From: an uncultured Pseudomonadota bacterium
Lineage (GTDB): Bacteria; Pseudomonadota; Gammaproteobacteria; Steroidobacterales; Steroidobacteraceae
NCBI GenBank assembly: GCA_963727305.1
Contig: CAVSFM010000004.1
Span: forward strand, 6,385 to 70,384
DNA length: 64,000 nt
Direction of reading: 5' to 3'
The position numbers were made by a program, and so were the translations under genes. The notes under the pieces were generated by a model. That model did no database searches. It had not been told where the DNA came from and saw only the letters and a list, made by a program, of their open reading frames with translations. Of the stretch, positions 39,170 to 57,323 are shown one piece after another. How positions within the stretch are numbered: the stretch's first letter is position 1; the number at the start of each line of letters is the position of its first letter.

Positions 39170-39310
39170 CACGCCCTTCCCCCTGCCGGCACTCTCGCGC
39201 GGCGTTCCCGGCTTCGGTTGGCCCAAGGTCTTATTGGCAGTGGGAGCCACTTGTGAAATAAGCGAGCCGGAGGCGTTTTAATGCGCATCACCCTACCTCA
39301 GGAATCCGCC

Positions 39311-39902
39311 ATGCGACATCTGACCCGAACTCTCGCTGCGGCATCGGCCGCCGCCCTGCTCAGCGCAGCCGTGCTGGCCCAGCACACCGCCCGCCGCCGC
39401 GGCACCCACGGATGCGGGAGGGCTGTCCTCCAGTCTCGGGTTGTACGTCTTCCCGGCCAAGAATCAGACGGCGCAAACGCAATCCAACGACGAGGCCGCG
39501 TGTTTTGGCTGGGCCAAGACGCGCACCGGCATCGACCCCATGGCGATCAAGCCCCAGACCGCCGCCGCCCCCCAGCAGGCCGCCACGACCTCCCCCTCCG
39601 ACGCCGGCAAGGGCGCAGTCGCAGGCGGTGCGGTGAAGGGCGCCGTCGTCGGTACGGCGATCGGTGCGATTGCCGGAGACACGGGCAAGGGCGCGGCGAT
39701 CGGCGCAACCGCGGGTACGGTCGCCGGGGTACGCGGAAAGCGCCAGGCCCAATCTCAGGCCGCGGCGAATCAGCAGCAGCAACAGGCCGCGGCTGAGCAG
39801 GCCGCGGCGCAAGCGGCCGCGGCCTCGGTCGCCCAGCAGAAGGCCGATTACAACAAGGCGTTCTCCGCGTGCATGGAAGGCAAGGGCTATACGATCAAGT
39901 GA
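39311..39902 (+). CDS. Exported glycine-zipper protein; apparent frameshift near 39390
   Basis: The signal peptide MRHLTRTLAAASAAALLSAAVLAQ is in the frame of ORF 39281..39796. The mature part (...LYVFPAKNQTAQTQSNDEAACFGWAK...GAVAGGAVKGAVVGTAIGAIAGDTGKGAAIGATAGTVAG...ACMEGKGYTIK) is in ORF 39441..39902. Confidence 0.6.
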
Positions 39903-40060
39903 CCGTCGTCCGCCCTCACCGAGGCATGCACCACGGCTCCGATCTGGCGGCTCGCGGGCCTGGCTTCACCACGTGACCCGAACACTCGCCGCGGCGCCCT
40001 AGCCGTGGGCGCCCAAGGACCGCCCGTCATTCCCGCTGCGCCGCCTCGCCGAGGCCGCGT

Positions 40061-41397
40061 GTGAGGGTCTGCGTCTCCCCTGCCGTGCGCCTGCTGGCCT
40101 TGATCCTGGTCGTGCCGCTCGCGGGCTGCACGCTGTACGACAAGTACAGTCCCTCCCAGCGCGCCGCCCGCAAGCAGGTCCAGCAGTTGCAGAGCCTGCA
40201 GCTGGCGGTCATGAGCTTTGCCGATGAGTACGTCGCCCGCACGGGCGAGGCCATCACGCGCTTCCAGGGGCAGACCGAAAACCCCGAGGACCGGCTGCTC
40301 ACGCAGGACTGGCGCGTCCAGCAGGCCACGTCGGCCTACACGATCGCCAGTGGACCGAGCCCGGTCACCAATGCCCTCGACATGGTGGTGCTGGCGTCTT
40401 TGAGCCGCATGCGGCTCGAGGACCACTGGGTGGTGGAGCGGTTTGGCCCGCGGCTCAAGCCGCTGCAGGAGACTTACCGCAGGGTCGAGGCGGAGGCCTG
40501 GCAGATCGTGGACGGCGTCCTGACCGAAGAACAGTCCCGGCGCCTGAAGGAGATCATGGCCCAGTGGCGCGCGAGTCATCCCGAGGTGCAGGGAGTGGCG
40601 TACGTGCATTTCCAGGAGTTCGCCGATTCCCTGGGGCGGCGCCGGGAGCCGGCGATCAGGCTCAGGGCGGAAGTTTATTTTCCATGCTGGGAATTGATCC
40701 TTTCTCCTCCCTGGATCCCGCCGTGCGCGAAATCACCCAGAGCCGCGCCCTGGCCGAGCGCACGATCTATTACCTGCAGCGCGCGCCCACGCTGCTCGAC
40801 ATGCAGGTCGTGCGCCTCACCTATCAATTTGCCGTGATGCCCGAGAGCAAGGCGCTGCTGGCCGACGCCCAGCGGGTCTCACTCCTCGGCAGTGCGTCGG
40901 ACCAGCTCGTCCAGACGCTGCCCGCGATGCTTGACCGGCAGCGCGAGGCGCTCCTGGCGCAGCTGGTGGGGGTCCTGAAGGAGCAAAGCGCCACGGTGAG
41001 CGCACTGACGACCAATCTGCGCTCGACGCTGGAGGCCGGGACCGAGACGGCGAATGCCGTGCACGGGACACTGGACGTTGTCGAGCGCATCACCGGGCAG
41101 TTTGCCGGCAAGCCCGCGACGCCGGCGGCCGAGAAAGGCCCCCCGTTCGACATCCGCAACTACACCGAGATGCTGCGCGAGGCCACCACGGCGAGTCGCG
41201 AGCTCGATGCGCTCGCCGCGCGCACCGACTCGTTGCTGCCGGTGCTGCGGGTCGCCAGCCAGGACACCGCCAACCGCGTCAACGGGATTCTCAATCATCT
41301 GTTCTGGCTGGCCGTGCTCCTGATTCTCGTGGCAACGGCTGCGGTGCTCCTGGGCGCGCTGGCCTATCGCCGGCTCAGCAGGCGGGGCGCGCCCTAG
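40061..41397 (+). CDS. Hypothetical lipoprotein (~445 aa) with a C-terminal TM helix; apparent frameshift near 40640
   Basis: GTG start with lipobox VVPLAGC (ORF 40061..40837). Coding-like sequence continues in ORF 40564..41397 from ...GGSLFSMLGIDPFSSLDPAVREI to LFWLAVLLILVATAAVLLGALAY. I recognise no family. Confidence 0.55.
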
Positions 41398-41401
41398 CAT
41401 C

Positions 41402-43219
41402 GTGCGGCACGCTGGCAGAGCAACACTGTGCGCGGCGTCTGCTGCGCTGCTGCACGCGGGACTGGCTCTGGGCGCCGGGACCCTCCCGGGCGTGGCGCAG
41501 GCCCCCGCCGATGCGCTGTACCTCAACGGTTACATCTACACGGTCGATGCACACGATCGCGTGGCCGAGGCACTCGCGGTGCGTGACGGACGCATCCTCT
41601 ACGTCGGCACGAGCGCCGCTGCGCGCGCGCTCGCCGGGCCCTCGACGCACACCATCGAGCTGAACGGCCGCATGCTGATGCCGGGACTCGTGGACGGGCA
41701 CATGCACCCGCTCGAAGGCGGCACGGTGCTCATGAAATGCAACCTCAACTATGAGCGCCTCACGGTTGCGCAGATGCAGGCCCGCATCCAGGCGTGCCTG
41801 GATGCCACGCGGGCCGGTGAGCCGGATCGGTGGCTCGAGGTCACGAGCTGGTTCCGCGAAGCGATGCTGCCGAGCGGGGTACCGGTGACGCGTGCGACGC
41901 TCGATGCGCTCAAGACCCACCGCCCGATCTACGTCATGTCCTCCTTCGGTCACACGGCGCTGGTCAACACGCGCGCGCTCAAGCTCGCCGGGATCGACGC
42001 CGCCACTGCCGATCCCCTCGGCGGCCGCATCGACCACGAGGCTTCTCATGCGCCTTCCGGGATCCTCGAGGACACCGCCTCCGACCTCGTGAGCACGCAC
42101 ATCCCCAAGCCCACCGCTGCCCAGAACGCGAAGGCGGCGCGCGCCGCACTGGCGGCGATGCGCGCCCAGGGAATCACCAGCTTCCTCGACGCCGACACGT
42201 TTCCGCAGTCCCTCGCCGCCTTCGCCGCCGCCGAGCGTGCCGGCGCCTTAAGCGCCCGCGCTCACTTCGCGCTGCATATCGGTCCTGAGGAGGCCGCCGA
42301 TCCCAGAGCGGCCATTGCCCGTGTGCGCCGGCTCGCACAGCGCTACGACCAGGGCAAGGCGCAGCCGACGCCCACTCTGGCGGTGCACAACATCAAGCTC
42401 TACATGGATGGAATCATTACCGCCCCGGCGCTCACCGGGGCGATGCTGGAACCGTACTTCGTGAACAGCGGCACCGAGGCGCAGCCGGCGTGGCGGCCGG
42501 GCGAGGATCGCGGGCCGGCCGTGTACTTCCCGCCGCCCGCCCTGGCGGCGATGCTGATCGAGGGGGCGCGCGCGCACCTCGAGCCGCACATGCATGCCGA
42601 CGGCGATCGCGCCGTGCGCGCGGCGCTGGATGGGATCGCGGCGCTGCGGCGCGAATTCCCGGGCAGCGCCATCCGCGCCGCGATCGCGCACGATGAGATC
42701 GTCAGTCCCGCGGACTTCCCGCGATTCGGTGAACTCGAGGCGATCCCGGTGCTCTCGTTCCAGTGGGAGAAGCGCGCGCCGGATACCGTAGAGGGCGAGC
42801 TCGGCTATCTCGGACCGGAACGCTACCGCTATATCGAGCCGGCGGGTTATCTCGCCCGGGCCGGCGCGCTGATCGCTTACGGGAGCGACTGGCCGATCGA
42901 TCCTCTGAACGAGTGGTTCGCGCTGAAGGTGGCCGTGACCCGCGAGAATGACCCGGCGGCGGGCGCGGCGTACGCGGGCCGGCTGGGGACGGATCCGGGT
43001 CTCACGGTGGCGCAGGCCGTGCGCGCCATCACCGCCAGCGCCGCCTACGAACTGCACGCCGAGACGGAAGTGGGCTCCCTCGAAGCCGGCAAGCTCGCCG
43101 ACTTCATCGTGCTCGATCGCAACATCCTGCAGGTGCCGCCGGCACAGATTGCGGACGTGAAGGTGCTGCTCACGGTGGTCGGCGGACGTGCCGTTTACGA
43201 GGCGCCGGCGTCGAACTGA
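41402..43219 (+). CDS. Exported amidohydrolase-family metallo-hydrolase (YtcJ/Amidohydro_3-like)
   Basis: 605 aa. Signal peptide, then LYLNGYIYTVDAHDRVAEALAVRDGRILYVG...LMPGLVDGHMHPLEGG (HxH metal site), HMHADGDRAV, and C-terminal GSDWPIDPLNEW...GSLEAGKLADFIVLDRN. Confidence 0.85.
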   Translation: MRHAGRATLCAASAALLHAGLALGAGTLPGVAQAPADALYLNGYIYTVDAHDRVAEALAVRDGRILYVGTSAAARALAGPSTHTIELNGRMLMPGLVDGHMHPLEGGTVLMKCNLNYERLTVAQMQARIQACLDATRAGEPDRWLEVTSWFREAMLPSGVPVTRATLDALKTHRPIYVMSSFGHTALVNTRALKLAGIDAATADPLGGRIDHEASHAPSGILEDTASDLVSTHIPKPTAAQNAKAARAALAAMRAQGITSFLDADTFPQSLAAFAAAERAGALSARAHFALHIGPEEAADPRAAIARVRRLAQRYDQGKAQPTPTLAVHNIKLYMDGIITAPALTGAMLEPYFVNSGTEAQPAWRPGEDRGPAVYFPPPALAAMLIEGARAHLEPHMHADGDRAVRAALDGIAALRREFPGSAIRAAIAHDEIVSPADFPRFGELEAIPVLSFQWEKRAPDTVEGELGYLGPERYRYIEPAGYLARAGALIAYGSDWPIDPLNEWFALKVAVTRENDPAAGAAYAGRLGTDPGLTVAQAVRAITASAAYELHAETEVGSLEAGKLADFIVLDRNILQVPPAQIADVKVLLTVVGGRAVYEAPASN

Positions 43220-43305
43220 TCCGGCCGGCGCGCGCCATGGCCGGGAAACCCCAGGCACCGCCGGGCGCACCTCAAGGTGCGGCCGGCGGCGCACTTGCGG
43301 GCCAG

Positions 43306-43890
43306 CTAGTGAGACGGATCCACGCTGATCGCCACGGCCTCGCTCAGTGCCACGTCGACCTGATCCCCGGATTTCAGTCCGGCGATGAACGTGCGTCCCT
43401 CGCTGGAGTGCACGGCCGCGGTGTCCACGGTGCCGTCCTGGCGCATGAACGTGACGGTGTTTTCGTCCTTGTCGACGCTCTGGATCGTCACGGTTTCCAC
43501 CACGGTGGTATCCATGCTGGCGGCAGGACGCTCACCCGGCAGAGACCGGGAGGCGCCCAGGGCCATCGTCTGCGGGATCGGCGCTGCGCCCTTCGGGGTC
43601 AGCTGCGCCGCGATTGCCGTGTAGTAGGTCACCGTCACCGTGTCGCCTACCTTGATCTGGCTGAAGTTGCGCACATCAGGACCGGCGCGCAGCCAGGTGG
43701 ACCCCTGGGCGGTATGCAGCTTGAGGAGGCGGGTCACCGGCTCGGCGACTTCCACCGTCGCGGTCGCATGGCGCGTAACGTCGTGGTACATCGGCTGCGG
43801 CGGCGGCGGGGGCGAATGGGCACAGGCGGCGAGATACAGCGCAGCGAACGCTGCGAGAAAGAACCGCCCTGAGGGCTGATAACAATGCAT
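43306..43890 (-). CDS. Hypothetical lipoprotein
   Basis: 194 aa. Lipobox-like LYLAACA, poly-Pro, then beta-rich sequence. No recognisable family. Confidence 0.5.
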   Translation of the reverse strand: MHCYQPSGRFFLAAFAALYLAACAHSPPPPPQPMYHDVTRHATATVEVAEPVTRLLKLHTAQGSTWLRAGPDVRNFSQIKVGDTVTVTYYTAIAAQLTPKGAAPIPQTMALGASRSLPGERPAASMDTTVVETVTIQSVDKDENTVTFMRQDGTVDTAAVHSSEGRTFIAGLKSGDQVDVALSEAVAISVDPSH

Positions 43891-44405
43891 GCGGAAACTC
43901 CATGTCGCGGCGGCTCGGAAGGAGCTGCCTGCCCGAATAGTCTAGCGGGTCTGGAGGGCACGGGTACGGGCAGTGGGACCAAGGTCCACTGGCGCCTGCG
44001 AGGACCATCAAGCAGGGTCAACCTGCGGAACACCGCCACACGGTGCACAGTGACCTGCGATGGGTCATCGGCGGACAATTCGTGGCGGAGATTTTTTCTA
44101 GACTGCCGTTGGCGTCCGAAGAGCGCTGCAGGAATCCGGCAGACACGCTCCGACAACAACCGAACCGAACGCCTATCTGAGGAATCATTTCCAAATTCAT
44201 CGGCCAATGGCTGCAGAGCTGCAGGGAATTCCCGCCGCGCCAGAAGCCGGGAAGCTTCAACCTCGACCGCGTCATGGAAGAAGTGACACGCGGAGCTGGC
44301 GAGTGACGCTTGGGCACGCGGTGTGCCGCGCAGGGTGTCCCGCGTGCGCCACGGCGAAGCTGCCGGTTGTGTTACTTTTGCGGCACTGAAAGCCAGGAGC
44401 GAGCC

Positions 44406-46268
44406 ATGAAGCGTGTGTTGCCCCTACTGATCGCCCTGACGCTGGTCGCCGCGTGCGCACGACAGACCCCGCCCGCCGCCCAAAGCGCCGCTCCGGCAGC
44501 CCCCGCCACGGTTGCTCCGAGCCTGCCGCCCCCGAATCCGCTGCGCAACGCCTACTTCGGGGATCTGCACCTGCACAGCAGCTACTCGATGGATGCGTTC
44601 GCGATGAGCACGCGAACCACCCCGGAAGATGCCTTCCGCTACGCCAGGGGCGAGAGCGTCGAGTACTTCGGTCAGCCGCAGAAACGCATGGCGCCGCTCG
44701 ATTTTCTGGCGCTGACCGATCACGCCGAGTACCTGGGTGTCGTGCGGCAGACGATCGATCCGAACGGTCCGTATGCCCATACGGAATGGTTCACCATGAT
44801 GACCAGCAAGGACCCGAAGGTCTCGGCGGAGGCCTTCAAGAAGCTGATCGGGTCGACCATCGTGAATAAGCCGATGCCCGAGTTCTCCGACCCTGCGACG
44901 CTGCATACGGCGTGGGCCCAGTACGCCGCGGTCGCCGAGAAATACAACGAACCGGGCAAGTTCACCGCCTTTGTCGGCTTCGAGTGGACGTCGGCTCCGG
45001 AATTCCAGAACCTGCATCGCTGCGTCATTTTCGCCGACAGCGGCCCGGACATGCCCTACACGTCCTTTGACTCGCAGAACCCGGAGGACCTGTGGCGTTA
45101 CCTGCAGACGCAGCGGCAGGCAGGGCACGAGGTGATTGCGGTGCCCCATAACAGCAACGCGAGCAATGGGCTGATGTTCAACGTCAAGGACATGTCGGGC
45201 CGGCCCCTCACGCGCGATTACGCCGAGCGGCGCATGGCCAACGAGCCGCTGGTGGAAATCATTCAGGGCAAGGGCCAGAGCGACACGAGCCCGGAGCTCT
45301 CGCCCAATGACGAGTTCGCGCGCTTCGAGATGTGGAAGTACCTGATCGGGACCAGTACGCCCATGAAGTCGGCCACCGGCAGCTACATCCGTCAGGCCTA
45401 TGGGGTCGGACAGGCGCTCCAGGAGAAGCTGGGCGTCAATCCGTTCAAGTACGGCATCGAGGCGGGGACTGACTTTCATTCCGGCCTGTCCTCCACGGAG
45501 GCCAGCAACTACCCCGGCTCGCACGGCAATCAGGACAGCGATCCCAGTCTGGCGAAGAAGGTCATCACGGATACGACCTCCATCGGCGGCGAGCCCCCGA
45601 CATCACTGGGCTCGGGCGGTCTGACCGGGGTATGGGCCGAGGAAAACACCCGCGCCGCGCTGTTTGCGGCCATGAAACGCAAGGAGACCTTTGGCACCTC
45701 GGGCGTGCGCATCAAGGTGCGGATGTTCGCCGGCTGGGACTACCCACAGGATCTGACCAAGAACGCCGACTGGGTCAAGACGGCGTACGCGCAGGGCGTG
45801 CCCATGGGTGGGGACCTGCCGCCGCATGCGGGCGCCGCGCGTCCGACCTTCGTGGTCGCAGCCATCAAGGACCCCAACAGCGGCAATCTCGACCGCATCC
45901 AGATCATCAAGGTCTGGACCAAGCACGGCGTCAGCCACGAACAGGTCTTCGACGTGGTCTGGAGCGGAGACCGCAAGCCCGATCCGAAGTCCGGCAAGGT
46001 GCCACCGGTGGGCAGCACGGTCGACGTGAAAACGGCGACCTATACCAACTCGATCGGCAGCCCGGAACTGAGCGGTCAGTGGGTGGACACGAGCTTCGAC
46101 CCTGCCGCGCATGCGACCTACTACGCACGCGTGCTCGAGATCCCGACGCCGCGCTGGTCGACGTACTGGGCGGCGAAGCTGCAGGTGGCTCCGAATCGCG
46201 AGCAGCCGACGACGGTGCAGCAGCGCGCCTGGACTTCGCCGATCTGGTTCACCCCCGCAGCGCCCTAG
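44406..46268 (+). CDS. DUF3604-family lipoprotein (PHP-like metal-dependent hydrolase fold suspected)
   Basis: ATG at 44406 preceded by AGGAGC. Lipobox LTLVAAC. AYFGDLHLHSSYSMDAF (HxH), LALTDHAEYLG, FVGFEWTS, AVPHNSNASNG, AGTDFHSG and the C-terminal ARVLEIPTPRWSTY...TSPIWFTP together match my memory of DUF3604 proteins. Confidence 0.8.
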   Translation: MKRVLPLLIALTLVAACARQTPPAAQSAAPAAPATVAPSLPPPNPLRNAYFGDLHLHSSYSMDAFAMSTRTTPEDAFRYARGESVEYFGQPQKRMAPLDFLALTDHAEYLGVVRQTIDPNGPYAHTEWFTMMTSKDPKVSAEAFKKLIGSTIVNKPMPEFSDPATLHTAWAQYAAVAEKYNEPGKFTAFVGFEWTSAPEFQNLHRCVIFADSGPDMPYTSFDSQNPEDLWRYLQTQRQAGHEVIAVPHNSNASNGLMFNVKDMSGRPLTRDYAERRMANEPLVEIIQGKGQSDTSPELSPNDEFARFEMWKYLIGTSTPMKSATGSYIRQAYGVGQALQEKLGVNPFKYGIEAGTDFHSGLSSTEASNYPGSHGNQDSDPSLAKKVITDTTSIGGEPPTSLGSGGLTGVWAEENTRAALFAAMKRKETFGTSGVRIKVRMFAGWDYPQDLTKNADWVKTAYAQGVPMGGDLPPHAGAARPTFVVAAIKDPNSGNLDRIQIIKVWTKHGVSHEQVFDVVWSGDRKPDPKSGKVPPVGSTVDVKTATYTNSIGSPELSGQWVDTSFDPAAHATYYARVLEIPTPRWSTYWAAKLQVAPNREQPTTVQQRAWTSPIWFTPAAP

Positions 46269-46323
46269 GCTGGCGCCTTCTCGTCCCGGTTGTGCGCGAC
46301 GGGTCGGGGGCTGGGGAGAAGCG

Positions 46324-48227
46324 ATGATGAAATGGAGTTCGATGGTCGCCACGGCGAGTGGCGCGCTGATGCTGTTGGCGGGCTGCTCCCGGTCACCCGC
46401 ACCGCCAGCCCCCGTGGCGGCGCCGCCCGCGGCCGCATCGCCATGGCCCGGTACCGACGCCCTTCCCCGAGCGCGTCTTCTGGGGCGATGAACACGTCCA
46501 CACCGGCTGGTCCGCGGATGCCGGACTTGCCGGGACGACGCTCTCGCCCGAGGACGCCGTACGCTTCGTGCGCGGTGAGACCGTCAAGTCAAACACCGGC
46601 CAGGACGCCAAGCTCGAGGTACCCCTCGACTGGGTGGCCGTAACCGATCACAGCGATGGCATGGGCACCATCAGCGAGCTGCAGGCGGGGAACCCCGAGT
46701 TCATGTCCGACCCGAGAGCGCGCGAATGGGCAGAAGGCATGAAGAAGGGTGGCGTGGCGGCCCACGACGCCGCGATGGCGGCGGTCTCGGCGCAGTCGAA
46801 TAAGAACCTGCCCAAGGTCTTCATGGATCCGAAGTGGATGGCGTCGGCGTGGATGAAGACCATCGACATCATGGAGAAGTACAACGAGCCCGGAAAATTC
46901 ACCGCGTTCATCGCCTATGAATGGACCTCGAACGCGGGCGGGGGCAACAACCTGCACCGCAATGTCCTCTTCCGTGACAACGGCGACAAGGCCCGGCAGG
47001 TACTGCCCCTGACGACCTTCCAGACCGAGGACCCGGCCGGACTCTGGGAATGGATGGCGGCCTACGAGGCCAAGACCGGCGGCAAGCTGCTGGCGATCCC
47101 GCACAACGGCAATCTCTCGAACGGTCGCATGTTCGAGGAGCGCCAGTTCGACGGCAAGGCCATGACGCGTGAATGGGCCGAAACGCGCGCCCGCTGGGAG
47201 CCGCTGTTCGAGTACTACCAGTACAAGGGCTCAAGCGAGGCGCACCCGTCACTGTCAACGACCGACGAGTTCGCCAATTTCGAGCTGTGGGACACCGGCA
47301 ACCTCGATGGCGTCGGCAAGAAGCCTGGCATGATTGCGCACGAATAGCCCGCGAGGCGCTCAAGAACGGCATCAAGATCGAAGCGCGGCTCGGCGCCAAT
47401 CCATTCAAGTTCGGCGCCGCGGCCGGCACCGACACGCATACCGGGCTGAGCGCCCCGGTGGAGAACAATTTCTGGGGCAAGTTTCCGGCCTCGGAACCCT
47501 CCGCGCACCGCTGGAATGGCGTCTACAAGAATGAAAAGAGCGGCTACCTGCGGCGCGAGTGGACACAGTCCGCCATGGGATACACCGGGGTGTGGGCGAC
47601 GGCCAATACCCGTGAGGCCATCTGGGACGCTATGAAGCGCAAGGAGACGTACGCTTCCACCGGCCCGCGCATCACGGTGCGCTTCTTTGGCGGATATGAC
47701 TTCAGCGACGCGGACGCCAAGGCCGACACGCTCGCTGCGACCGGCTACGCCCGGGGCGTGCCGATGGGGGGCGACCTCAAGGCGCCGCCACCGGCCAGGC
47801 GCCGACCTTTCTGATCGCCGCCCTCAAAGACCCGAGCGGCGCGAACCTTGACCGTGCCCAGGTCGTGAAGGGCTGGGTCGATGCGGCCGGCACGACGCAT
47901 GAAGCGATCTACGATGTGCTCTGGAGCGATCCGGCGACACGCCGGCCGGTGCGGGGCAAGCTGCCGCCGGTGGGAGACACTGTGGACCTCGCGACCGCAA
48001 CTTATACGAACAGCATCGGCGCCGGCGAGCTGACCGGCTCCTTGAAGGAGCCGTCCTTCGATCCGGGGCAGCGTGCGTTCGACTACCTGCGGGTACTGGA
48101 GATCCCGGCGCCGCGCTGGACGGCGTATGATGCGGCCAAGTACAAAATCAAGATGACGCCGGACGTGCGCATGAAGCACCAGGAACGTGCCGTGACGTCA
48201 CCGATCTGGTACACACCAACCACCTAA
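46324..48227 (+). pseudogene. Second DUF3604-family lipoprotein, tandem paralogue, reading frame broken three times (about 46445, 47345, 47783)
   Basis: Four pieces in different frames. (1) MMKWSSMVATASGALMLLAGCS (lipobox). (2) ...RVFWGDEHVHTGWSADAG...IAYEWTS...IPHNGNLSNG...GMIAHE(stop). (3) AREALKNGIKIEARLGANPFKFGAAAGTDTHTG...GVPMGGDL. (4) ...FLIAALKDPSGANLDRAQVVKGWVD...LRVLEIPAPRWTAY...TSPIWYTP. The pieces are collinear with the upstream paralogue. Confidence 0.75.
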
Positions 48228-48300
48228 AGGGTTCCAGTCACTGAGTTTGCAGCGCGGGGCATAGCGCCTCGGTCTGCGAGCTCCTTCATGAGGTATTGGC

Positions 48301-49152
48301 TTGCGCATAAAGCAGCTGTTTCGTGAGCCGCTCCTGCACTTTCTGCTGATCGGCGTCGTTCTGTTTGCAGTCTTCGGCAAGCTCGCCGGTCCGGACAGGA
48401 CCGGCAGGCACATCGTCGTAAGCCAGGCGATGGTCGAGCAGATGGCACAGGAATTCCAGGCACGCTGGATGCGACCGCCGAGCGATCAGGAGTTGTCCGG
48501 CCTGATCGATTCCTACGTGCAGGACGAGATCCTGTACCGCCACGGCCTCTCGCTCGGTCTCGATCGCGATGACCCCGTGATCAAGCGGCGCGTGCGCCAG
48601 AAGCTCGAGCTCATGTCCGAGGAACAGAACGCGCAGGCCGCGCCAACCGATGCCGACCTGGCGGCTTACCTGCAGAAGAATCCCGCCCAGTTCCTGCGCC
48701 CGGCCACGGTCAGCTTCGAGCAGATTTTCCTCGACGCTCCCGGCGAGCAGGCGGATGTTGAGCGCGCCGTGGCTGCGACCCGCGCCGCCCTGGCACGCGG
48801 AACGGATCCGAGCAAGCTCGGCCGGGCCTCGATGCTGCCCGCCCGCGTCGCCGACGCTTCGCAGGATGAGGTGGCACGCGACTTCGGCGCCGCCTTCGCG
48901 ACGACGCTCACGAAGCTGCCGATCGATGAGTGGAGCGGGCCTGTGACCTCCGGCTTCGGGACCCACCTGGTGCGCGTGACGGCGCGAGCCGCGGCGGCGT
49001 TGCCACCGCTGAACGAGGTGCGTCCCCTGGTTGCGCGTGAGTGGGAGAATGCCCGGCGCACCCGCTCACGCGACGATGACTACCAGAAGCTGCGTCGCGA
49101 CTACGACGTCGTCATTGAAGCAAAACTTCCCGCTCCGGCCGCCGGACGCTAA
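48301..49152 (+). CDS. Membrane-anchored PpiC/parvulin-like peptidyl-prolyl isomerase family protein
   Basis: TTG start after GAGG. N-terminal TM (LLHFLLIGVVLFAVF), a chaperone-like helical region (LIDSYVQDEILYRHGLSLGLDRDDPVIKRRVRQKLE), and a C-terminal rotamase-like segment (WSGPVTSGFGTHLVRV). Confidence 0.65.
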   Translation: MRIKQLFREPLLHFLLIGVVLFAVFGKLAGPDRTGRHIVVSQAMVEQMAQEFQARWMRPPSDQELSGLIDSYVQDEILYRHGLSLGLDRDDPVIKRRVRQKLELMSEEQNAQAAPTDADLAAYLQKNPAQFLRPATVSFEQIFLDAPGEQADVERAVAATRAALARGTDPSKLGRASMLPARVADASQDEVARDFGAAFATTLTKLPIDEWSGPVTSGFGTHLVRVTARAAAALPPLNEVRPLVAREWENARRTRSRDDDYQKLRRDYDVVIEAKLPAPAAGR

Positions 49153-49162
49153 ATGGCGAGCG

Positions 49163-50155
49163 TTGCGCTGGCTGCTGCTTCTCACGCTGTGCGCGGCGCC
49201 GCTGTCCGCGCTGGCCGATGAATTCCGCCCCGCTTACCTGCAGCTGACCCAGCTCAGCGCCGATCGGTATGACGTGCTGTGGAAGCTGCCGGCGCTCGAT
49301 GAAGCGACCACGCTCAGGGTGCACCCGCAGTTTCCGGACGGCACGCGGGAGCTCACGCCGGTGCGGTCAAGTTACGCCGCAGGCACGGCGGTACAGCGCT
49401 GGCGCATCGAGGTCACGGGCGGCCTGGCTGGAAAGGCCATCGAATTCTCGGGCCTGCCCGCCACACGGCTCGACGTTCTGGTGCGCGTGCAGCGTGCCGA
49501 CGGCACGGTGCAGCTCGGTCGGGTACTGCGGCTGGAACCGCACTTCATGGTAACGGCAAGCCCCGGCTCCTTCGAGGTCGTACGGACTTACACGGTGCTC
49601 GGGATCGAGCACATCCTCACCGGATTCGACCACCTTCTCTTTGTCCTGGCCCTCGTGATTCTGGTGAAGGGACTGCGGCGCCTGATCGCCACCATCACGG
49701 CCTTCACGCTCGCCCACAGCCTGTCACTGGTCGCCGCCACCCTCGGCTGGGTCCATGTGCCGGGACCGCCGGTTGAGGCCTCCATCGCGCTTTCGATCGT
49801 CTTCGTGGCCGGCGAGATCATTCACACCAGGGACGGCCGCCCCGGGCTGACGCAACGCTATCCATGGGTCGTCGCCTTCACGTTCGGTCTGCTGCACGGG
49901 CTGGGGTTCGCCAGCGCCCTGGCGGAGGTCGGCCTGCCGCAACGGGCGATCCCGGTCGCCCTGTTCTTCTTTAACGTCGGCGTCGAGATCGGCCAGCTGC
50001 TGTTCATCGCCGCAGTCTTCACGGTTACCGCGGCAGCACGCCGGATCACGCGCCGCATCCGTGTTCCGCAACTACCCTGGCTCTGGAGGGTTCCGCCGTA
50101 CGCGATCGGCGGCATCGCGAGCTATTGGGTGCTCGAGAGAATTTCCGCGTTTTAG
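49163..50155 (+). CDS. HupE/UreJ-family membrane protein with an extra ~140-aa N-terminal periplasmic domain
   Basis: Frame of ORF 49031..50155, with a probable TTG start at 49163 (RWLLLLTLCAAPLSALA signal). The HupE signature is GIEHILTGFDHLLFVLAL, followed by five more TM helices (GLLHGLGFASAL, FNVGVEIGQLLF). Confidence 0.75.
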   Translation: MRWLLLLTLCAAPLSALADEFRPAYLQLTQLSADRYDVLWKLPALDEATTLRVHPQFPDGTRELTPVRSSYAAGTAVQRWRIEVTGGLAGKAIEFSGLPATRLDVLVRVQRADGTVQLGRVLRLEPHFMVTASPGSFEVVRTYTVLGIEHILTGFDHLLFVLALVILVKGLRRLIATITAFTLAHSLSLVAATLGWVHVPGPPVEASIALSIVFVAGEIIHTRDGRPGLTQRYPWVVAFTFGLLHGLGFASALAEVGLPQRAIPVALFFFNVGVEIGQLLFIAAVFTVTAAARRITRRIRVPQLPWLWRVPPYAIGGIASYWVLERISAF

Positions 50156-50209
50156 GGCAGTGACTCGTTTCTGCAGCGAAGCTGCCAGCGCTCGCCTAGG
50201 ATCTTGACG

Positions 50210-51239
50210 ATGGTGCGTTTAATCACCGGAGTCCTGCCATCGTTGGCGGGCGCAGTGGTGCTACTGGGCAGTGGTGCGATGCCCGCCAGGGCGGATGGGC
50301 CACGCGCAGGTTGACCCCCACCTGCCGCTGCAGGTGCTCGCCGATGTTCCCCTCGGCGGCCGTGCAACCCGCCTGGACTACGCGAGCCTCGACCCGGCTC
50401 GACACCTGATGTTCATCGCACACCTCGGCGACAGCGAGGTGATCGTCTTCGACACCCTTGCGAGGCGGGTGGTCACGCGCATTGCTGCGGTCAGTCGCGT
50501 GCACGGCGTACTCGCCATTCCGGACCTGGGCCGCGTGTACGCCTCGGCCACCGGAACTAACGAAGTCGTGGCCATCAATGCGGACACATTCAGGATCATT
50601 GGGCGCGTGCCCGGCGGCGTCTACCCGGACGGCCTGGCCTATGCGCCTGAGGCTCACAAGCTCTACGTCTCGGACGAACACGGCGGGACGGACACCGTGA
50701 TCGACGTGGCTACCAATACCCGGACCGCGACGATCCAGATCGGCGGTACCATTGGCAACACCCAGTACGACCCGCTCAGTCGCCACATCTTTGTGAATGC
50801 GCAAAGCACCGCGGAACTCGTGGAGATCGACCCGGCCCGCGATGTCATCGTTCGACGAATCCCTTTACCGGGGGCCGATGGAAATCACGGACTGCTGCTC
50901 GACCTGGAGCATCGCGCCTTTGTCGCCTGCGAGGGCAATGCTCGGTTGATTGTGGTCGACCTGCTGACCGGTAAAGCTCTCGCCGGGTTTCCGGTCGCCA
51001 AGGATCCCGACGTTCTCGCGCTCGACCCGGCCCGGCACGAGTTGTACGTCGCCGGGGAATCCGGAGTGGTATCTGTGTTCGGGCTGGGAATCGGCAGCGC
51101 CATTACCAAGATTGCCGAGGGCACCCTGGCTCCGAGCGCCCATGTGGTTGCGGTAGATCCTTCGACGCACGAAGTGTATTTCCCACTGCAGAACCTCCAT
51201 GGCGCGACGGCCTTGCGGATAACGAGGCCCATGCCCTGA
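50210..51239 (+). CDS. YncE-type beta-propeller repeat protein, exported; apparent frameshift near 50295
   Basis: The signal peptide MVRLITGVLPSLAGAVVLLGSGAMPARA is in one frame (ATG 50210). The propeller body is in ORF 50271..51239, with repeated blades (...LYVSDEHGGTDTVIDVATN..., ...IFVNAQSTAELVEIDPARD..., ...AFVACEGNARLIVVDLLTG..., ...LYVAGESGVVSVF...). Confidence 0.7.
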
Positions 51240-51275
51240 GTCCTGGATCGATACTCGAAATGGCCCCTGCGAGCC

Positions 51276-52439
51276 TCAGGCGTTGCTGGATTGCTCCAGC
51301 GGGATATCGTAACGCTCGACATAAGGTCGAAATCGCTCCGCGATCGCCGCCGCGTCCAGGCCGAATTCCTCCAGGTCGTAAGCATGTCTGCCGAACCGCC
51401 CCTTCGGGTGCGAGGCAATGTGGTCCGTCATCGCAGCCAGCGCGGGGCCGTCGAGCTCCTCGCCGAATGCCGCGTAGACGCGGCGCATCGTCCCCAGGGT
51501 GTCGCGGACGAGGTCCGCGTAATGCACATCGACGATCCGCCGCCCCGGGTCGGCGTCGCGAAACGCATCAACACTGGCAATTGAATTGGCAAGGATGTCG
51601 GTCCAGTGGTCCGCGATGTAGCGCCGGTGATCGGCATCTGAGAACGTTCGCGTCAGAGTGGTGATCAGGCTGCAAACCGAGGCGCACAGCACGACGGGGT
51701 CGCGGTGCATCAGCACCAGGCGGGCGTCGGGATAGACGGCCGTCAGCGCATCCAGGTGCAGCGCGTGGTGCGGGCTCTTGAGCGACCAGCGGCCGCGCAC
51801 GCCGCCGCTCTGCAGAACCTGCAGCACGCGCCGGTGATACTCATAGGCCGAACGATGGTCGGTCGCCTGCAGCCAGCGGCCGTAGCCGGGGACATTCGCC
51901 ATCGCCTCCCACAGCAGGCTCTTGAAATCCTGGTTCAGGACCGAGATGCACTCGGTGGGTCCATCGGGTTCCTCGCTTTGCACGAGCCGGACCCGCGGGT
52001 TTATCTGGTCCAGCATGGCCGCGGCCGCCCGGGCCGCCTCGATGCGCGGATCGGTGCGCAGCGTCGCCGGCGTGGGCGGCGGCACGCTGTCCCCGGCCTC
52101 CCAACGCAGCAGCGGGCGATGCCGTGGGTCCTTCTCCAAAAGATACGAGAGGAACGTCGTGCCGGCCCGGAAAAGGCCGATCACGACGAACGGCGCCTCG
52201 ATGTGCTCCGCGGCGATCTGCGGGTGATGCTTGAGCCAATCGGTGATCCGCAGGCGGTTGGCGAGGGATGCGAGGATCGCGCCCGGGATGACCGCCGAGC
52301 CGATCGGGTTGAGCTGCGCCTCCGCCGAGGCCGACTCACAGTAGACCTCAAGGCCTTCGCGGAAGCTGTCACCTCCGAAATCGTCGAGCCCCGTCTGTGC
52401 GCAGGCGGCGGCAATGAGGGCATCGGCTCGGATCTGCAT
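51276..52439 (-). CDS. Sulfotransferase-family protein
   Basis: ATG at 52439 (MQIRADALIAAA...). The PAPS 5'-phosphate loop is like VVIGLFRAGTTFLSYLL. KSPHHALHLDAL and LVLMHRDP are typical of the Sulfotransfer_3-type family. Confidence 0.75.
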   Translation of the reverse strand: MQIRADALIAAACAQTGLDDFGGDSFREGLEVYCESASAEAQLNPIGSAVIPGAILASLANRLRITDWLKHHPQIAAEHIEAPFVVIGLFRAGTTFLSYLLEKDPRHRPLLRWEAGDSVPPPTPATLRTDPRIEAARAAAAMLDQINPRVRLVQSEEPDGPTECISVLNQDFKSLLWEAMANVPGYGRWLQATDHRSAYEYHRRVLQVLQSGGVRGRWSLKSPHHALHLDALTAVYPDARLVLMHRDPVVLCASVCSLITTLTRTFSDADHRRYIADHWTDILANSIASVDAFRDADPGRRIVDVHYADLVRDTLGTMRRVYAAFGEELDGPALAAMTDHIASHPKGRFGRHAYDLEEFGLDAAAIAERFRPYVERYDIPLEQSSNA

Positions 52440-52727
52440 GGAGGCTCCGTTCACGTGGCGGCGATTTCGATGACGGTGCGGCCGCTCCTGCCGTACGGTA
52501 CCGGCCCGAGAGGCCGCCCGGTAGTGTCCTTCGCCCGAGGACCGCATCGTGGGAAGCTGCGCATAGCCCGGGCGATGACGTTACTCTAGTCCGGACGAAG
52601 TACATCTAAGCCGCGATGCTTGGATTTTGACCCGGCCGGTGCGCCCAGGGGGGCCGGACCGTGGAAGCGAACCGGATCTTCCGACTAATGTGCGATTTGC
52701 CCCGAAGTTGCGATGGGAGATAGCGCG

Positions 52728-53600
52728 ATGCGCCTTGCGGTTCAGATGATGCCGGGCCTGCTTGCCGCCGCCCTGATCGGCGCCACGGCATTCGCCTCGC
52801 CCGCGAGCCCTCCTGAACTGCCACCCCCGCCCAAGGTCGACGGCCCGCGCCTGTACGTATTCGATTGTGGAACTCTGGTCTACAACAAGCCGGAGGATTA
52901 CGACCTGAAGCGCGAGGAGGTCAAGGACAGCAACATGGGCGTCACCTGTTACCTGGTGGTGCACCCCAAGGGCCTGCTCATTTACGACACCGGCCTCAAT
53001 GACCGTCTGATCGGCAGGCCGCTGTACGAAAACGTCCTCGAAGGCTATGGCCAAATTAAGTTCAACACCCTGAGGGGGCAACTGGCCGACATCGGCCTCA
53101 CACCTGCCAGGGTCGATTACCTCGTGCTGTCGCACTATCACTGGGACCATGTCGGCAATGCCGCTGACTTCGCCGGCTCCACGTGGCTGGTCTACAAGGG
53201 CGACCGCGATCAGATGTTCAGCACGGCGGCGCGCGCCTATCCGTGGTTCGCGCAGTATTCAGCGCTGGAGCACAGCAAGACGAAGGTTCTCAGCGGTGAC
53301 TATGACGTTTTCGGGGACGGCACGGTGGTGGTGATCGCGACGCCGGGGCACACGGAGGGGCATTGTTCACTCCTGGTGCGCCTGAGGAATACCGGACCCG
53401 TCCTGCTCTCGGGCGACCTGTATCACTATGCGGAAGAGCGTGACCTGAAGCGCCTGCCGGACGAGGAAAAGACCACGGGAACGGTCCAGTCGCGCCAGAA
53501 GGTTGAGGAATTGCTGCAGCGGACCGGCGCGCAGCTGTGGATCGGCCACAGCATGGAGTTCTTTCGGAACGTGCGTAAGTCACCGGCGTGGTACGACTGA
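52728..53600 (+). CDS. Secreted MBL-fold hydrolase of the N-acyl-homoserine-lactonase-like family
   Basis: ATG at 52728 after GGGAG (alternative ATG at 52713). Signal peptide MRLAVQMMPGLLAAALIGATAFA. Metallo-beta-lactamase motif LSHYHWDHVGN, later TPGHTEGH and GDLYH. Confidence 0.8.
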   Translation: MRLAVQMMPGLLAAALIGATAFASPASPPELPPPPKVDGPRLYVFDCGTLVYNKPEDYDLKREEVKDSNMGVTCYLVVHPKGLLIYDTGLNDRLIGRPLYENVLEGYGQIKFNTLRGQLADIGLTPARVDYLVLSHYHWDHVGNAADFAGSTWLVYKGDRDQMFSTAARAYPWFAQYSALEHSKTKVLSGDYDVFGDGTVVVIATPGHTEGHCSLLVRLRNTGPVLLSGDLYHYAEERDLKRLPDEEKTTGTVQSRQKVEELLQRTGAQLWIGHSMEFFRNVRKSPAWYD

Positions 53601-53630
53601 CGCGCAGCGCCCAGCCGCAGCCAGGGCAGG

Positions 53631-54395
53631 CTAGAGACTGCGAATCATGCCGCCGTCGACGCGCAGGATCGAGCCGGTCACATAGCCGGCGCGTTCGCTT
53701 AAGAGAAATGCCGCCAGGGCGGCCAGCTCCTGCGGCTGCCCGTAGCGCCCCAGCGGTATGCCCTGCCGCGACTGCCGTTCGACTTCCCCGACTTCGAGGC
53801 CCTCCCGCTGCGCACGCGCCCGGTCGAGCTCCGCGACGCGGTCCGTTTCGATGCGGCCCGGCGCGACGCAGTTGACGGTGATCCCGTCCTGCGCGACCTC
53901 GTTTGCCAGGGTCTTGGCCCAGCCGACCACCGCGAGGCGCAGCGCGTTGGAGATCCCGAGATTCGGCAGGGGCTGCACGACGCCAGAGGAGACCAGCGCC
54001 AATATCCGCCCGAATCCGCGTTCCCGCATGCCCGGCAGAGCCGCGCGGGTGAGGCGCACGAAACTGAGAAACATGGCATTGAACTGGTTCGTCCAGACCT
54101 CATCGGCCACGTCCGCCACCGGACCTGGCGGCGGTCCGCCAGAATTGAGCACGAGAATATCCACGGCGGCGAGGCGCGGCGCCAGCACGGCGAGCTCATC
54201 GGCACGGCTTAGATCGCACACCTGCGCCTCGATGTGCCCGGGGCCGCAGGCGACCAGTTCCGCGAGGCGATCGGGGTGGCGTGCGATGGCAATAACCTGC
54301 GCGCCCTCGGCCGCCAGTGCCAAGGCAATTGCGCGACCGAGACCGCGCGAGGCCCCGGTGACCGCCGCGCGACGTCCCTTGAGATTTAACTCCAA
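53631..54395 (-). CDS. SDR-family oxidoreductase (FabG-like)
   Basis: 254 aa. TGASRGLGRAIALALA, NSGG, VNCVAPGRIETDR and YVTGSILRVDGG. Confidence 0.85.
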   Translation of the reverse strand: MELNLKGRRAAVTGASRGLGRAIALALAAEGAQVIAIARHPDRLAELVACGPGHIEAQVCDLSRADELAVLAPRLAAVDILVLNSGGPPPGPVADVADEVWTNQFNAMFLSFVRLTRAALPGMRERGFGRILALVSSGVVQPLPNLGISNALRLAVVGWAKTLANEVAQDGITVNCVAPGRIETDRVAELDRARAQREGLEVGEVERQSRQGIPLGRYGQPQELAALAAFLLSERAGYVTGSILRVDGGMIRSL

Positions 54396-54539
54396 GCGCC
54401 AGGCTCCTGAGCCGCGGTTCGACCGTCGCGCGAAACTTTAGCAGGAGCGGGTGCAGAACTTCCGGGTTGCCGCAGCAACTGGTTCACGGGCGTCAAGTGG
54501 CCGCCGCGCCGCTTAAGAAAGTACTTTCCGAAATCCGTC

Positions 54540-54697: not shown

Positions 54698-57323
54698 ATG
54701 AGGATCAATCCGAAGTGTGCTCGTGCAGTCGCGTCGATCCTGGGCGCCCACACAGCCGCCGCCACCTATGCGACAGCCGCCGATAATCCCTCAGACGCAT
54801 CGGCCGGTGGCATCCAGGAAGTCGTCGTCACCGCGCAGCGGCGTACGGAAAACGCGCAGGACGTGCCCATCACGATGCAGGTGTTTACCAGTGAGACCCT
54901 GCAGCAGCTGAATGTCACGACTTTCGATGACCTGATCAAGTATCTGCCCAATGTGTCGGCGGCGTCCGCGGGACCGGGTCAATCCCAGGTCTTCATGCGC
55001 GGCCTCAGCGTCGGGAGCCAAGGGACCCAATCCGGGGGCTCGATCAACGGGTTCCCAAACGTCGCGGTCTACCTGGATGACCAGTCCGGCCAGCTGCCGG
55101 GCCGAAACCTCGATGTCTACACGGCGGACATGGAGCGCGTGGAGGTTCTCGAGGGGCCGCAGGGAACATTGTTCGGCGCCGGGGCGCAGGCCGGCGTGAT
55201 CCGCTACATCACCAACAAGCCGAAGATGAACGTGACCGAGGGCAACGTTACGGCAACTTACGGAGTCACCGCGGGCGGCGACCCGAACACCGACCTGGTC
55301 GCGGTCCTGAATCTTCCGCTGATACCGGACAAGCTCGCGGTGCGGGGCGTGATCTACAACGACCGGCGCGGCGGCTACATCAACAATGTGCCGGCTACGT
55401 TCACGCGTAAGGCCAGCGATCTTGGAATCCACTATGGCAATTATCCGGACGGGTGTGGTCTCTCCCGCACTGCCTTGTCAGGTGCCCCCGGGGGCCCCGG
55501 TAATCAACAACGCCGGACTTACCGGCAACGCGATCAACCCGGTGACTTACACGGGCACCCGCGTTTCAGCTCTGTGGGATTTCACGGATGACTGGTCCGC
55601 TCTCATCACTCAGAGCTACCAAAACATCGACGCTCAAGGGGTCTTCTATCAGATGCCCAAGAGCTCAGACGGCGCGCCGCTGCCGCAGCAGTCCGTCACG
55701 CTGTTCACTCCCAACTACAATAAGGACAAGTACGAAAATACGGCTTGGACCTTCAATGGTCGATTCGGCGCTCTCAAGGCGGTCTACACCGGCTCGTACC
55801 TGGTGCGCAATGTCGATCAGATACAGGACTACACGAATTATGCGCGCGGTCTGTATGCGGACTACTACCAGTGCCACGGCGCCGAGCCGACGAAAGGCCT
55901 GGTTGCAACCTGCTATACGCCCCTATCCACCTGGACCGAGATCGAGCGCAACACGCATCAGAGTCACGAATTTCGCCTCAGTACGCCCGATGACTGGCGC
56001 CTGCGCGGCATCGTCGGCGCCTTCTGGGAGCAATTGCAGATTCAGGACCAACTGAACTGGAACTACAAGAGTCTGCCGCCCTGTACGACGACCGTCACGG
56101 CTGGATGTTTGACGAATGTGGGACCTGCGCCGGGTTCAACGTTGAACAACCCGGCTACGCGTGGGGATAACACCTCATTCTTCAATGATGTGCAGCGCGG
56201 ATACCGGCAAACAGCATTTTTCACCTCCTGGGATTACGACCTCATCCCCAAAGTGCTGACCCTCACTGCCGGCACGCGCTATTACGAGTTCGCAAACTCC
56301 GAGAGGGGCTCGGTCACGGGCAGCTTCTTTTGTTACGAGGCCGGTCCTGCGCCTTGCCTGAATTACTCGACCAGCATCGACGCCGAACACCTCCAAACGA
56401 CCGAGAGCGGCTTCAAGAGTCGCGCGAACCTGACCTGGCATTTCCTGCCGGATGCTCTCGTGTATTACACCTGGTCGCAGGGCTTCCGTCCCGGGGCTTT
56501 CAACCGACAAACTGGCTGCTACATCCAGAGCGCCGGCAATCCCGCGATCAACCTGTACTGCTCCCCGCTCCCGTACACGTCTGACAATTTGACCAACAAT
56601 GAACTCGGCTGGAAGACCGAGTTCTTCAACCGGCACTTGCAGTGGAACGGCGCTGTGTACCAGGAAAACTGGGACAACGTGCAGGTGCAGTTCTTCGACC
56701 CGGGCGTCCTCGGCAACGTCGGCTTCAACACCAATGGACCGAACTACCGGGTTCGCGGCGTGGAGACCTCGTTCATCGCCTTGCTCTATCAGGGCCTGAC
56801 GGCCCAGGGGGCGGCGGCGTGGAACAGCAGCGAGCAAACCAACTCGCCTTATCTGATTGCGAACAATCCCGCACTGCTGTCGGATCCGGCAGCCAAGGGT
56901 GAATACGGACAGCCGATACTCAGCGTGCAGAATCCCTACGGTCAGATCGGCAGTCCAAGCGCCAATTCGCCCCCGTTTCAGTTCAATCTGCGCCTGCGCT
57001 ACGAGCGCGCGATCAGCTCGTACAATGCCTTCGTGCAGGTGGGTACCACCCATACCGCGCACTCCTATACCCAATCCAGCACCAGCCCGGCTCTCTCCGC
57101 CGGCTCGGCGGTGAGCACCACTTTGATCAGGTTCGAGAATCCCGCGTATACCCAGTATGACGCATCCCTTGGTGTCGCAAAGGACGCGTGGACGGTGGAG
57201 GGCTACGCGCAAAACCTTACCAACGTGGTGACCAGTGTGTTCACATCCACCAATCAATTCGTCCCAGCCGAGACCATTACGCGGCCGCGCGTGCTGGGGG
57301 TCCGATTCGGCTTCAAATTCTGA
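54698..57323 (+). CDS. TonB-dependent outer-membrane receptor; apparent frameshift near 55455
   Basis: The signal peptide and plug (EVVVTAQRRTENAQDVPITMQVF...VEVLEGPQGTLFGAGAQAG) are in ORF 54698..55591. The barrel is in ORF 55386..57323 and ends with the terminal aromatic (RVLGVRFGFKF). Confidence 0.88.

Follow-up and report, generated by a model that had tools for sequence, protein, structure and literature searches.

The window analyzed here is a 64,000-nucleotide (nt) stretch of the genome of an uncultured Steroidobacteraceae bacterium (GenBank assembly GCA_963727305.1, contig CAVSFM010000004.1, positions 6,385 to 70,384), and at 44406-51239 it carries five consecutive plus-strand genes, g1 to g5, separated by spacers of 55, 73, 10 and 54 nt. 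The conserved core of this cluster is a three-part unit, DUF3604 (one to five copies)-Rotamase_2-HupE_UreJ_2, which we designate D-R-H; in the window D is represented by g1, R by g3 and H by g4, with g2 an extra D paralogue. We propose, at a probability that we put at roughly 0.5, that R and H serve to fold the Sec-exported D hydrolases and to provide them with metal outside the cytoplasm. The unit is a variant of the theme in which a metalloenzyme shares its operon with a dedicated metal permease and chaperone, the enzyme in this case being exported, and the linkage appears to be undescribed. A literature search with DUF3604, PF12228, PF13795 and combinations of HupE, PpiC and PHP returned no description of it; in the literature searched DUF3604 occurs only as the annotation of Chlamydia trachomatis CT_425, a protein of 622 residues (PMC11925237), and the Pfam accessions PF12228 and PF13795 occur nowhere.

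A first-pass annotation of the window, made from the sequence alone, had listed the five plus-strand genes with their coordinates, motifs and spacers, all of which are present as given. It had recommended profile hidden Markov model (HMM) searches, and these assigned g1 and g2 to DUF3604, g3 to Rotamase_2 and g4 to HupE_UreJ_2 (Pfam), and g5 to a YVTN repeat family (NCBIfam). We infer, as it did, that the permease and the chaperone may service PHP-type enzymes, a suggestion that now has conserved synteny behind it.

To survey the D side, one genome per GTDB species was scanned with the DUF3604 alignment, giving 80 loci (later counts are over 85 loci) from the Acidobacteriota, Bacteroidota, alpha-, beta-, gamma- and delta-proteobacteria, Gemmatimonadota, Verrucomicrobia and Hydrogenedentota, at least six phyla in all. 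Homologues of R were found in 55 of the 85 loci and homologues of H in 52, and both were present in 32 of the 49 loci that were informative, with at least 3 kb on both sides. Where a survey locus had both, H came immediately after R and in the same orientation in 48 cases out of 49, and the median distance from R to the nearest D was 62 nt. Each R-H pair was accompanied by one to five tandem D copies, in the order D(n)-R-H, R-H-D, or divergently. Surveying from the H side (80 metagenome loci) gave a matching picture, with R upstream of H in 41/41 informative loci and D present in 18/21, and at four loci (L001, L005, L167 and L169) the start and stop codons of the genes overlap or abut. The first-pass annotation had suggested, without verification, that DUF3604, PpiC and HupE genes are neighbors in other Gammaproteobacteria and had proposed a gene-neighborhood survey; the counts above bear the suggestion out and extend it far beyond that class. 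At the locus level the linkage of D to R-H is strong but not obligate.

The families themselves are large: the three homology searches each returned at least 8,000 candidates, all or nearly all of them significant, and for the R family 1,671 of the representatives clustered at 50% identity match at E<=1e-30. Rhizobial plasmids (megaplasmids) also carry the unit, namely pRle248d of R. leguminosarum (L168) and pCpl of S. meliloti (L169), and 79 plasmids in PLSDB contain DUF3604. The S. meliloti plasmid is conjugative; its D-R-H genes overlap by 4 nt and lie approximately 2.7 kb downstream of genes for type IV secretion.

The core was taken as D-R-H because g2 and g5 vary between relatives. The syntenic relatives have either D-R-H-g5 (L170, L172) or D-R-H alone (L171), and g2 is missing from all three. 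The closest orthologues of g1 outside the lineage (L166 and L167, 85% and 81% identical) likewise occur in loci without g2 that consist of D-R-H alone, and the closest named relatives of g1 in the D-side scan, in metagenome-assembled genomes of Acidobacteriaceae, are 70-78% identical.

The first gene of the cluster, g1 (44406-46268, plus strand), is an intact open reading frame (ORF) for a 620-residue lipoprotein that matched the DUF3604 family (PF12228) with 687 bits (cut-off 20.4) over profile positions 2-591 and carries the lipobox LVAAC, in agreement with its original description. The second, g2 (46324-48227, plus strand), matched the DUF3604 HMM in three pieces of 331, 186 and 189 bits that jointly cover profile positions 7-591; it is frame-broken in the window, and its intact counterpart in the closely related contig L001 has 635 residues. 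The two proteins are 43% identical and both begin with a lipoprotein signal. The earlier view of g2 as a diverged tandem paralogue therefore stands as to family and divergence, but not as to a continuous ORF, and the gene is strain-variable. Among 114 near-full-length DUF3604 ORFs, 102 carry an N-terminal hydrophobic signal, and 49 of those 102 a lipobox.

Searches of PDB sequences with g1 and with the DUF3604 profile gave no meaningful match, so that kinship of D with PHP proteins is visible by fold search only. We modeled g1 with AlphaFold2 from an alignment of 63 sequences that represent both paralogue groups; the model had a predicted local distance difference test score (pLDDT) of 87.7 and a predicted template modeling score (pTM) of 0.88, and it comprises a PHP-fold barrel with insertions and a C-terminal immunoglobulin-like beta-sandwich, the last 140 residues being similar to sandwiches of that type. 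Structure prediction with a Foldseek search had been suggested as a check on the PHP fold, and PHP proteins were indeed the top matches in the PDB: 3e38 (BVU_3505; E 6.4e-5, 497 columns) and 2anu (TM0559; E 4.5e-3), both at probability 1.0, with EndoQ (7k30) also among the matches. These two nearest folds are PHP-like predicted phosphoesterases, themselves without assigned function, and 3E38 may share with g1 the layout of PHP barrel plus C-terminal beta-sandwich. The two are 11-14% identical to g1 in sequence, and the large insertions of DUF3604 keep the TM-scores low (0.28/0.47).

The same 63 sequences have nine invariant residues (D53, H55, H57, H106, E193, H204, H248, D356 and H358), and in the model the predicted ligands HxH, H, E, H, H and DxH lie at or beside strands 48-53, 100-103, 186-196, 203-209, 243-248 and 350-353. 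Their predicted order, H55/H57, H106, E193, H204, H248 and D356/H358, is that of the PHP trinuclear site, so that fold and ligand pattern agree in both DUF3604 proteins with the annotation's comparison of the HxH motif to the metal site of PHP-fold enzymes. On the evidence of the model, D is an exported PHP-fold protein with a distorted (beta/alpha)7 barrel and a full set of predicted ligands, and the most likely candidate for its substrate is a phosphoester, or an ester related to one, that D would encounter in the periplasm. A precedent for an exported enzyme of this superfamily is Sb-PDE of Sphingobium sp. TCM1, a Sec-exported phosphodiesterase that contains Zn and some Co and keeps the metal-ligand motifs (PMC5460133). 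It resembles D, by description, as a Sec-exported PHP hydrolase, and differs in its length of 441 residues, in matching PF02811 rather than DUF3604, and in having no reported R-H partners.

The second component, R, is represented by g3 (48301-49152, plus strand), whose 283-residue product is anchored in the membrane at its N-terminus and has in the periplasm a parvulin-type chaperone domain like those of PEB4, SurA and PrsA. It matched Rotamase_2 (PF13145) with 65.7 bits (cut-off 27) over residues 115-242, and the R family profile matched PEB4/Cbf2 (3rfw, 1.2e-10), HP0175 (5ez1, 4.4e-9), SurA (4.9e-9) and also PrsA, aligning over both the chaperone and the parvulin regions. The layout of an N-terminal anchor followed by a periplasmic body also resembles that of PpiD. 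R differs from all five of these proteins in its size of about 280 residues, in always being encoded directly upstream of H, and in having a motif of its own, REPLLHF, which is strongly conserved, includes a near-invariant His, and lies at the cytoplasmic edge of the membrane anchor (window 48301-48390).

The active site of the parvulin domain is altered. The first catalytic His of parvulins is Gln in g3 (SFEQIFL, compared with LSHILI in SurA and AKHILV in PEB4) and no His is conserved at this position among the aligned R homologues, while the second catalytic His is present (GFGTHLV). Since g3 is without the first catalytic His, we prefer the term chaperone to foldase or isomerase; the first-pass description of an N-terminally anchored parvulin-like protein is otherwise accurate.

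The third component, H, is represented by g4 (49163-50155, plus strand), which encodes a signal peptide, a periplasmic beta-sandwich resembling ZrgA and the anglerases, and a HupE/UreJ-2 permease. It matched PF13795 (HupE_UreJ_2) with 162 bits (cut-off 24.5) over residues 143-294, after an extra domain of approximately 120 residues, while its score against PF04955 was far lower, at 34 bits. The signature HX5DH (HILTGFDH) is present in the first transmembrane helix, and H154, D160, H161, H189, E222, H249 and E279 are invariant among 15 H homologues from several phyla. In the AlphaFold2 model of g4 (pLDDT 80) residues 24-129 form a beta-sandwich, after which comes a helical membrane domain, and the top Foldseek matches of the N-terminal domain were structures of the zinc-binding protein ZrgA (8ezw and 8f1b; E 2.4e-4, TMt 0.62). 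Profile score and model thus uphold the annotation of g4 as a HupE/UreJ-type permease joined to an extra periplasmic domain.

HupE/UreJ genes sit inside the operons of Ni enzymes (hydrogenase, urease) and are thought to supply the enzyme encoded there. The permeases of those clusters belong to the same superfamily as g4 and share HX5DH, but their clients are Ni enzymes matured in the cytoplasm, whereas D is Sec-exported; g4 differs further in matching PF13795 over PF04955 and in always being paired with a parvulin-type chaperone. HupE/UreJ proteins are Ni/Co transporters (PMC2667541), and the first-pass annotation had termed g4 a Ni/Co-type permease; we retain the family and leave aside the preference for Ni and Co, with Zn, Ni, Co, Mn and Cu all possible.

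The annotation had also held that none of the five genes has an assigned role, which is out of date for g4: according to a 2025 paper, HupE/UreJ-2 proteins carry an N-terminal periplasmic domain that starts with His1 and is called an anglerase (PMC12537917). The structure of one such domain, RbAng-1a, has been determined (9GCE); its Kd is 74 nM for Cu2+ and 220 nM for Ni2+, its nearest fold is ZrgA, and the anglerases were proposed to capture metal and hand it on to the permease (PMC12537917). The gene neighbors reported for Ang-1 are those for DUF4198, IndA-like and PfkB proteins, with no DUF3604 or Rotamase_2 (PMC12537917).

The protein that contains RbAng-1a (from Rhodobacteraceae PD-2) has the same architecture as g4, with a signal peptide, a periplasmic beta-sandwich and a PF13795 permease. 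The two transmembrane domains are 47% identical (hhalign probability 99.3%), both mature proteins start with x-E-x-R-P-A (xE[VIF]RPA, by eye), and ZrgA is the nearest solved fold for both N-terminal domains. BLASTP and hhalign comparison of g4 with RbAng-1a aligned the transmembrane domain only, with no alignment of the N-terminal domains, and a profile search of PDB sequences found nothing. The g4 domain is about 50 residues shorter than Ang-1, has no helical insert, and begins with Asp1 rather than the His1 by which an Anglerase (Ang-1) domain is recognized. This Asp is the mature N-terminus in both the window and L001 (ALA|DEFRPAYL), and across the family the first mature residue of H is Asp in 115 of 120 close homologues and His in 88 of the 107 more distant ones with a readable motif. 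The difference may reflect a different metal preference; whether mature H starts with His or with Asp showed no correlation with the residue that precedes HxH in D (Asp, Glu, Asn or Gln). From the model and the comparison with RbAng-1a, H is best described as a HupE/UreJ-2 permease with a ZrgA-like, anglerase-like periplasmic domain that is predicted to bind metal.

Many loci have one or two additional HupE_UreJ genes immediately after H. In many acidobacterial, alpha- and beta-proteobacterial loci (L010-L012, L016, L022, L025, L034, L040 and L043) these are a canonical HupE_UreJ gene (PF04955) and then a divergent one, so that as many as three adjacent genes encode HupE-family membrane proteins; the window has no such extra HupE genes.

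In the mechanism that we propose, apo-D would leave the Sec translocon unfolded, R would hold it at the membrane, and H would supply the D active site with a divalent metal (Zn, Ni, Co, Mn or Cu being possible), a single R-H pair serving several D paralogues. The presence of several D genes per R-H pair, together with stand-alone D genes, fits a pattern of many clients and one maturation system, as is also seen with sulfatases and their maturases. Another parallel is the PHP-family Zn enzyme YcdX of E. coli, for which Redelberger et al. (2011) reportedly described YcdY as a dedicated chaperone promoting metal insertion. That pair would share with D-R-H the co-encoding of a PHP enzyme and a specific maturation chaperone, but is said to be cytoplasmic, with YcdY belonging to the TorD/NarJ family, which is unrelated to R, and with no permease.

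Several observations weigh against this proposal. The support for functional coupling of D, R and H is genomic context throughout, and the Pfam PHP family (PF02811) scored only 13.7 bits on g1 (cut-off 26.4, E 0.08), over the HxH segment alone. Three loci (L086, L108 and L129) have R-H and no D within 4-10 kb, and 17 of the 49 informative D loci have no R-H nearby. Characterized HupE proteins import Ni into the cytoplasm. The published anglerase model is likewise one of capture and uptake, which does not by itself include delivery to a periplasmic enzyme (PMC12537917). We considered whether R-H at L108 and L129 might serve another client enzyme, but the neighbors examined there were unrelated and pointed to none (DUF748/AsmA, a sigma factor and FtsX at the one; ExbB/DUF3450, HAD and MFS genes at the other).

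The loci in which R-H and D occur apart would be as expected if the genes were merely co-regulated, one operon gathering a periplasmic hydrolase, an envelope chaperone of general use and an importer of metal that respond to a shared inducing condition and are mechanistically independent of one another. We nevertheless regard co-regulation as a quite improbable explanation: adjacency of R and H with overlapping codons is near-universal (48/49 and 41/41), and the D-R-H order is kept over at least six phyla despite unrelated flanks, a behavior typical of genes whose products are physically or functionally coupled.

It was also reasonable to consider that the flow of metal is inward and that D serves to acquire it. 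Here D would cleave a metal chelate in the periplasm, for instance a metallophore or a metal-organophosphate complex, that had in many cases entered by TonB-dependent import, the N-terminal domain of H would capture the released ion for import by the permease, and R would aid assembly of the complex. Uptake is the published proposal for Ang-HupE/UreJ-2 (PMC12537917), HupE/UreJ proteins are Ni/Co importers (PMC2667541), TonB-dependent receptor, R, H and D genes stand together in that order in Novosphingobium, Steroidobacter and an uncultured gammaproteobacterium (L031, L054, L060, L080), and L129 has R-H beside ExbB/DUF3450 genes. Against this, a TonB receptor was found near only 10 of 85 loci, and the nearest one in the window lies 3.4 kb downstream of g5, past three unrelated genes. 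Moreover, the occurrence of up to five diverged D genes per R-H pair, and of many D genes alone, fits shared maturation better than a dedicated hydrolase, and we consider metal acquisition an unlikely function of the unit.

Maturation of D by R-H, the reading that we prefer, can be taken a step further, to a form that we hold only tentatively and judge possible but doubtful, in which the R-H pair would form, on the Sec side of the membrane, a station dedicated to metallation. R would then be a membrane-anchored holdase that keeps the fresh apo-hydrolase beside H, H would be a HupE/UreJ-2 channel, and its periplasmic domain would swing to pass on a specific, weakly competitive metal, drawn from the cytoplasm or captured locally, so that periplasmic Zn or Cu would be kept from mis-metallating the PHP site. 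If true, this would be the first case of a machinery that inserts metal into Sec-exported proteins in an enzyme-specific way, and it would serve a large environmental family of hydrolases.

It is not settled how proteins that pass unfolded through Sec come by the correct metal in the periplasm; the known solutions are folding in the cytoplasm followed by Tat export, or bulk availability of the metal. The D-R-H unit is abundant in soil, marine and symbiotic bacteria of many phyla, among them genetically tractable rhizobia. If R-H does mature D, it would provide a testable model of periplasmic metallation and a physiological client for the anglerase permeases, and it would give access to the biochemistry of DUF3604, a large family of hydrolases often found beside sulfatases, DUF1254/DUF1214 proteins and TonB receptors.

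The reading of the window itself is complicated by broken reading frames, which the first-pass annotation had overlooked in treating g2 and g5 as continuous. The length of g2, 1904 nt, is not a multiple of three, and its frame changes three times (1>2>1>0); relative to L001 it has single-base deletions at approximately 46435, 46441, 47347 and 47785. Likewise g5, at 1030 nt, is not a multiple of three, and a +1 insertion near 50304 places its signal peptide and body in different frames. In g4 the ATG at 49153 is out of frame through a 2-nt loss relative to L001, and the sole in-frame start is the TTG at 49163. L001, a JGI contig, is 97.4% identical in DNA to the window across 39104-54521 and has all five genes unbroken.

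The breaks are not confined to the cluster. Two genes upstream (39281-41397) are broken relative to intact copies in L001, by insertions of +1 near 39382 and +2 near 40639, so that 4 of the 12 genes common to the window and L001 are frame-broken in the window, apart from the lost ATG of g4. The TonB-dependent receptor mentioned above (54698-57323), just outside L001, is split over two overlapping ORFs in different frames, with the Plug at 54698-55591 and the beta-barrel at 55386-57323. Given that L001 is intact at 97.4% identity and that other genes of the window are broken in the same manner, the frame breaks are most likely indel errors of the assembly, not the marks of pseudogenes, and the gene products are best read from L001.

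The breaks stand in the sequence as given, and sister strains do without g2 and g5, so that one might instead suppose that the cluster is decaying in this organism, that the breaks in g2 and g5 are real mutations, and that only g1, g3 and g4 are functional. This we think very unlikely. Decay would have to account for so many breaks, the receptor and the g4 start included, at 97.4% identity to an intact relative and with no further sign of decay. Most of the indels in the window fall in short runs of C or G, and related ENA assemblies with contigs named contig_N (L170, L171) show like breaks in other genes, a pattern that points to errors of long-read assembly.

The last gene, g5 (50210-51239, plus strand), encodes an exported beta-propeller of YVTN repeats that is YncE-like. 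It passed the cut-off for the YVTN repeat family TIGR02276 (49.5 vs 27.85) and fell short of those for YncE (58.9 bits against a cut-off of 400 for NF052280; 17 against 27.1 for Pfam YNCE), so that the YncE-type propeller of the first-pass annotation is retained as a generic YVTN propeller. Its inclusion in the module is not: g5 is linked to the unit only in L001, L170 and L172, occurs as unlinked copies in L010 and L043, and was rejected as a member since it is missing from L171, L166, L167 and nearly all other loci. We regard it as a lineage-specific neighbor, confined essentially to the lineage of the window.

The cluster is preceded by 515 nt of intergenic DNA (43891-44405), which presumably holds the promoter region. 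The lower G+C content ascribed to this leader is real (about 0.63, against 0.66-0.70 in both flanks), but the leader is not free of ORFs, as had been stated, since spurious high-G+C ORFs run across it. An Rfam scan of 43000-52000 (E<=1) gave no match, so no riboswitch or other RNA was found in the leader; nor did a search of it reveal a sigma-70-like site. A sigma-54-like sequence, GGCAC-N5-KTGC, at 44313-44326 was considered and rejected, with 6 such sites found against 2.9 +/- 2.1 by chance and no conservation in orthologous leaders, and comparison of the leader with those of the orthologous loci L166, L167 and L004 revealed no motif in common. Terminator-like hairpins at the cluster were no more frequent than in shuffled sequence, and promoter and terminator signals are neutral as to a single transcript.

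The genes flanking the cluster, upstream a 194-residue lipoprotein and an Amidohydro_3 protein and downstream a sulfotransferase, an MBL protein and an SDR protein, were considered as members of the unit and rejected, being syntenic in the immediate lineage only. The lipoprotein gene (43306-43890, minus strand) lies across the leader from g1 in divergent orientation; its product has a proline-rich linker and no confident family, and it is kept only in L001, L002, L170 and L171. In the wider survey the genes near DUF3604 included those for DUF1254/DUF1214 proteins (9 loci), sulfatases (8 loci) and TonB receptors (10 loci), at L016, L025, L035, L037, L168 and others. A small conserved membrane protein without a Pfam family is encoded at 13 loci, either between D genes or before R.

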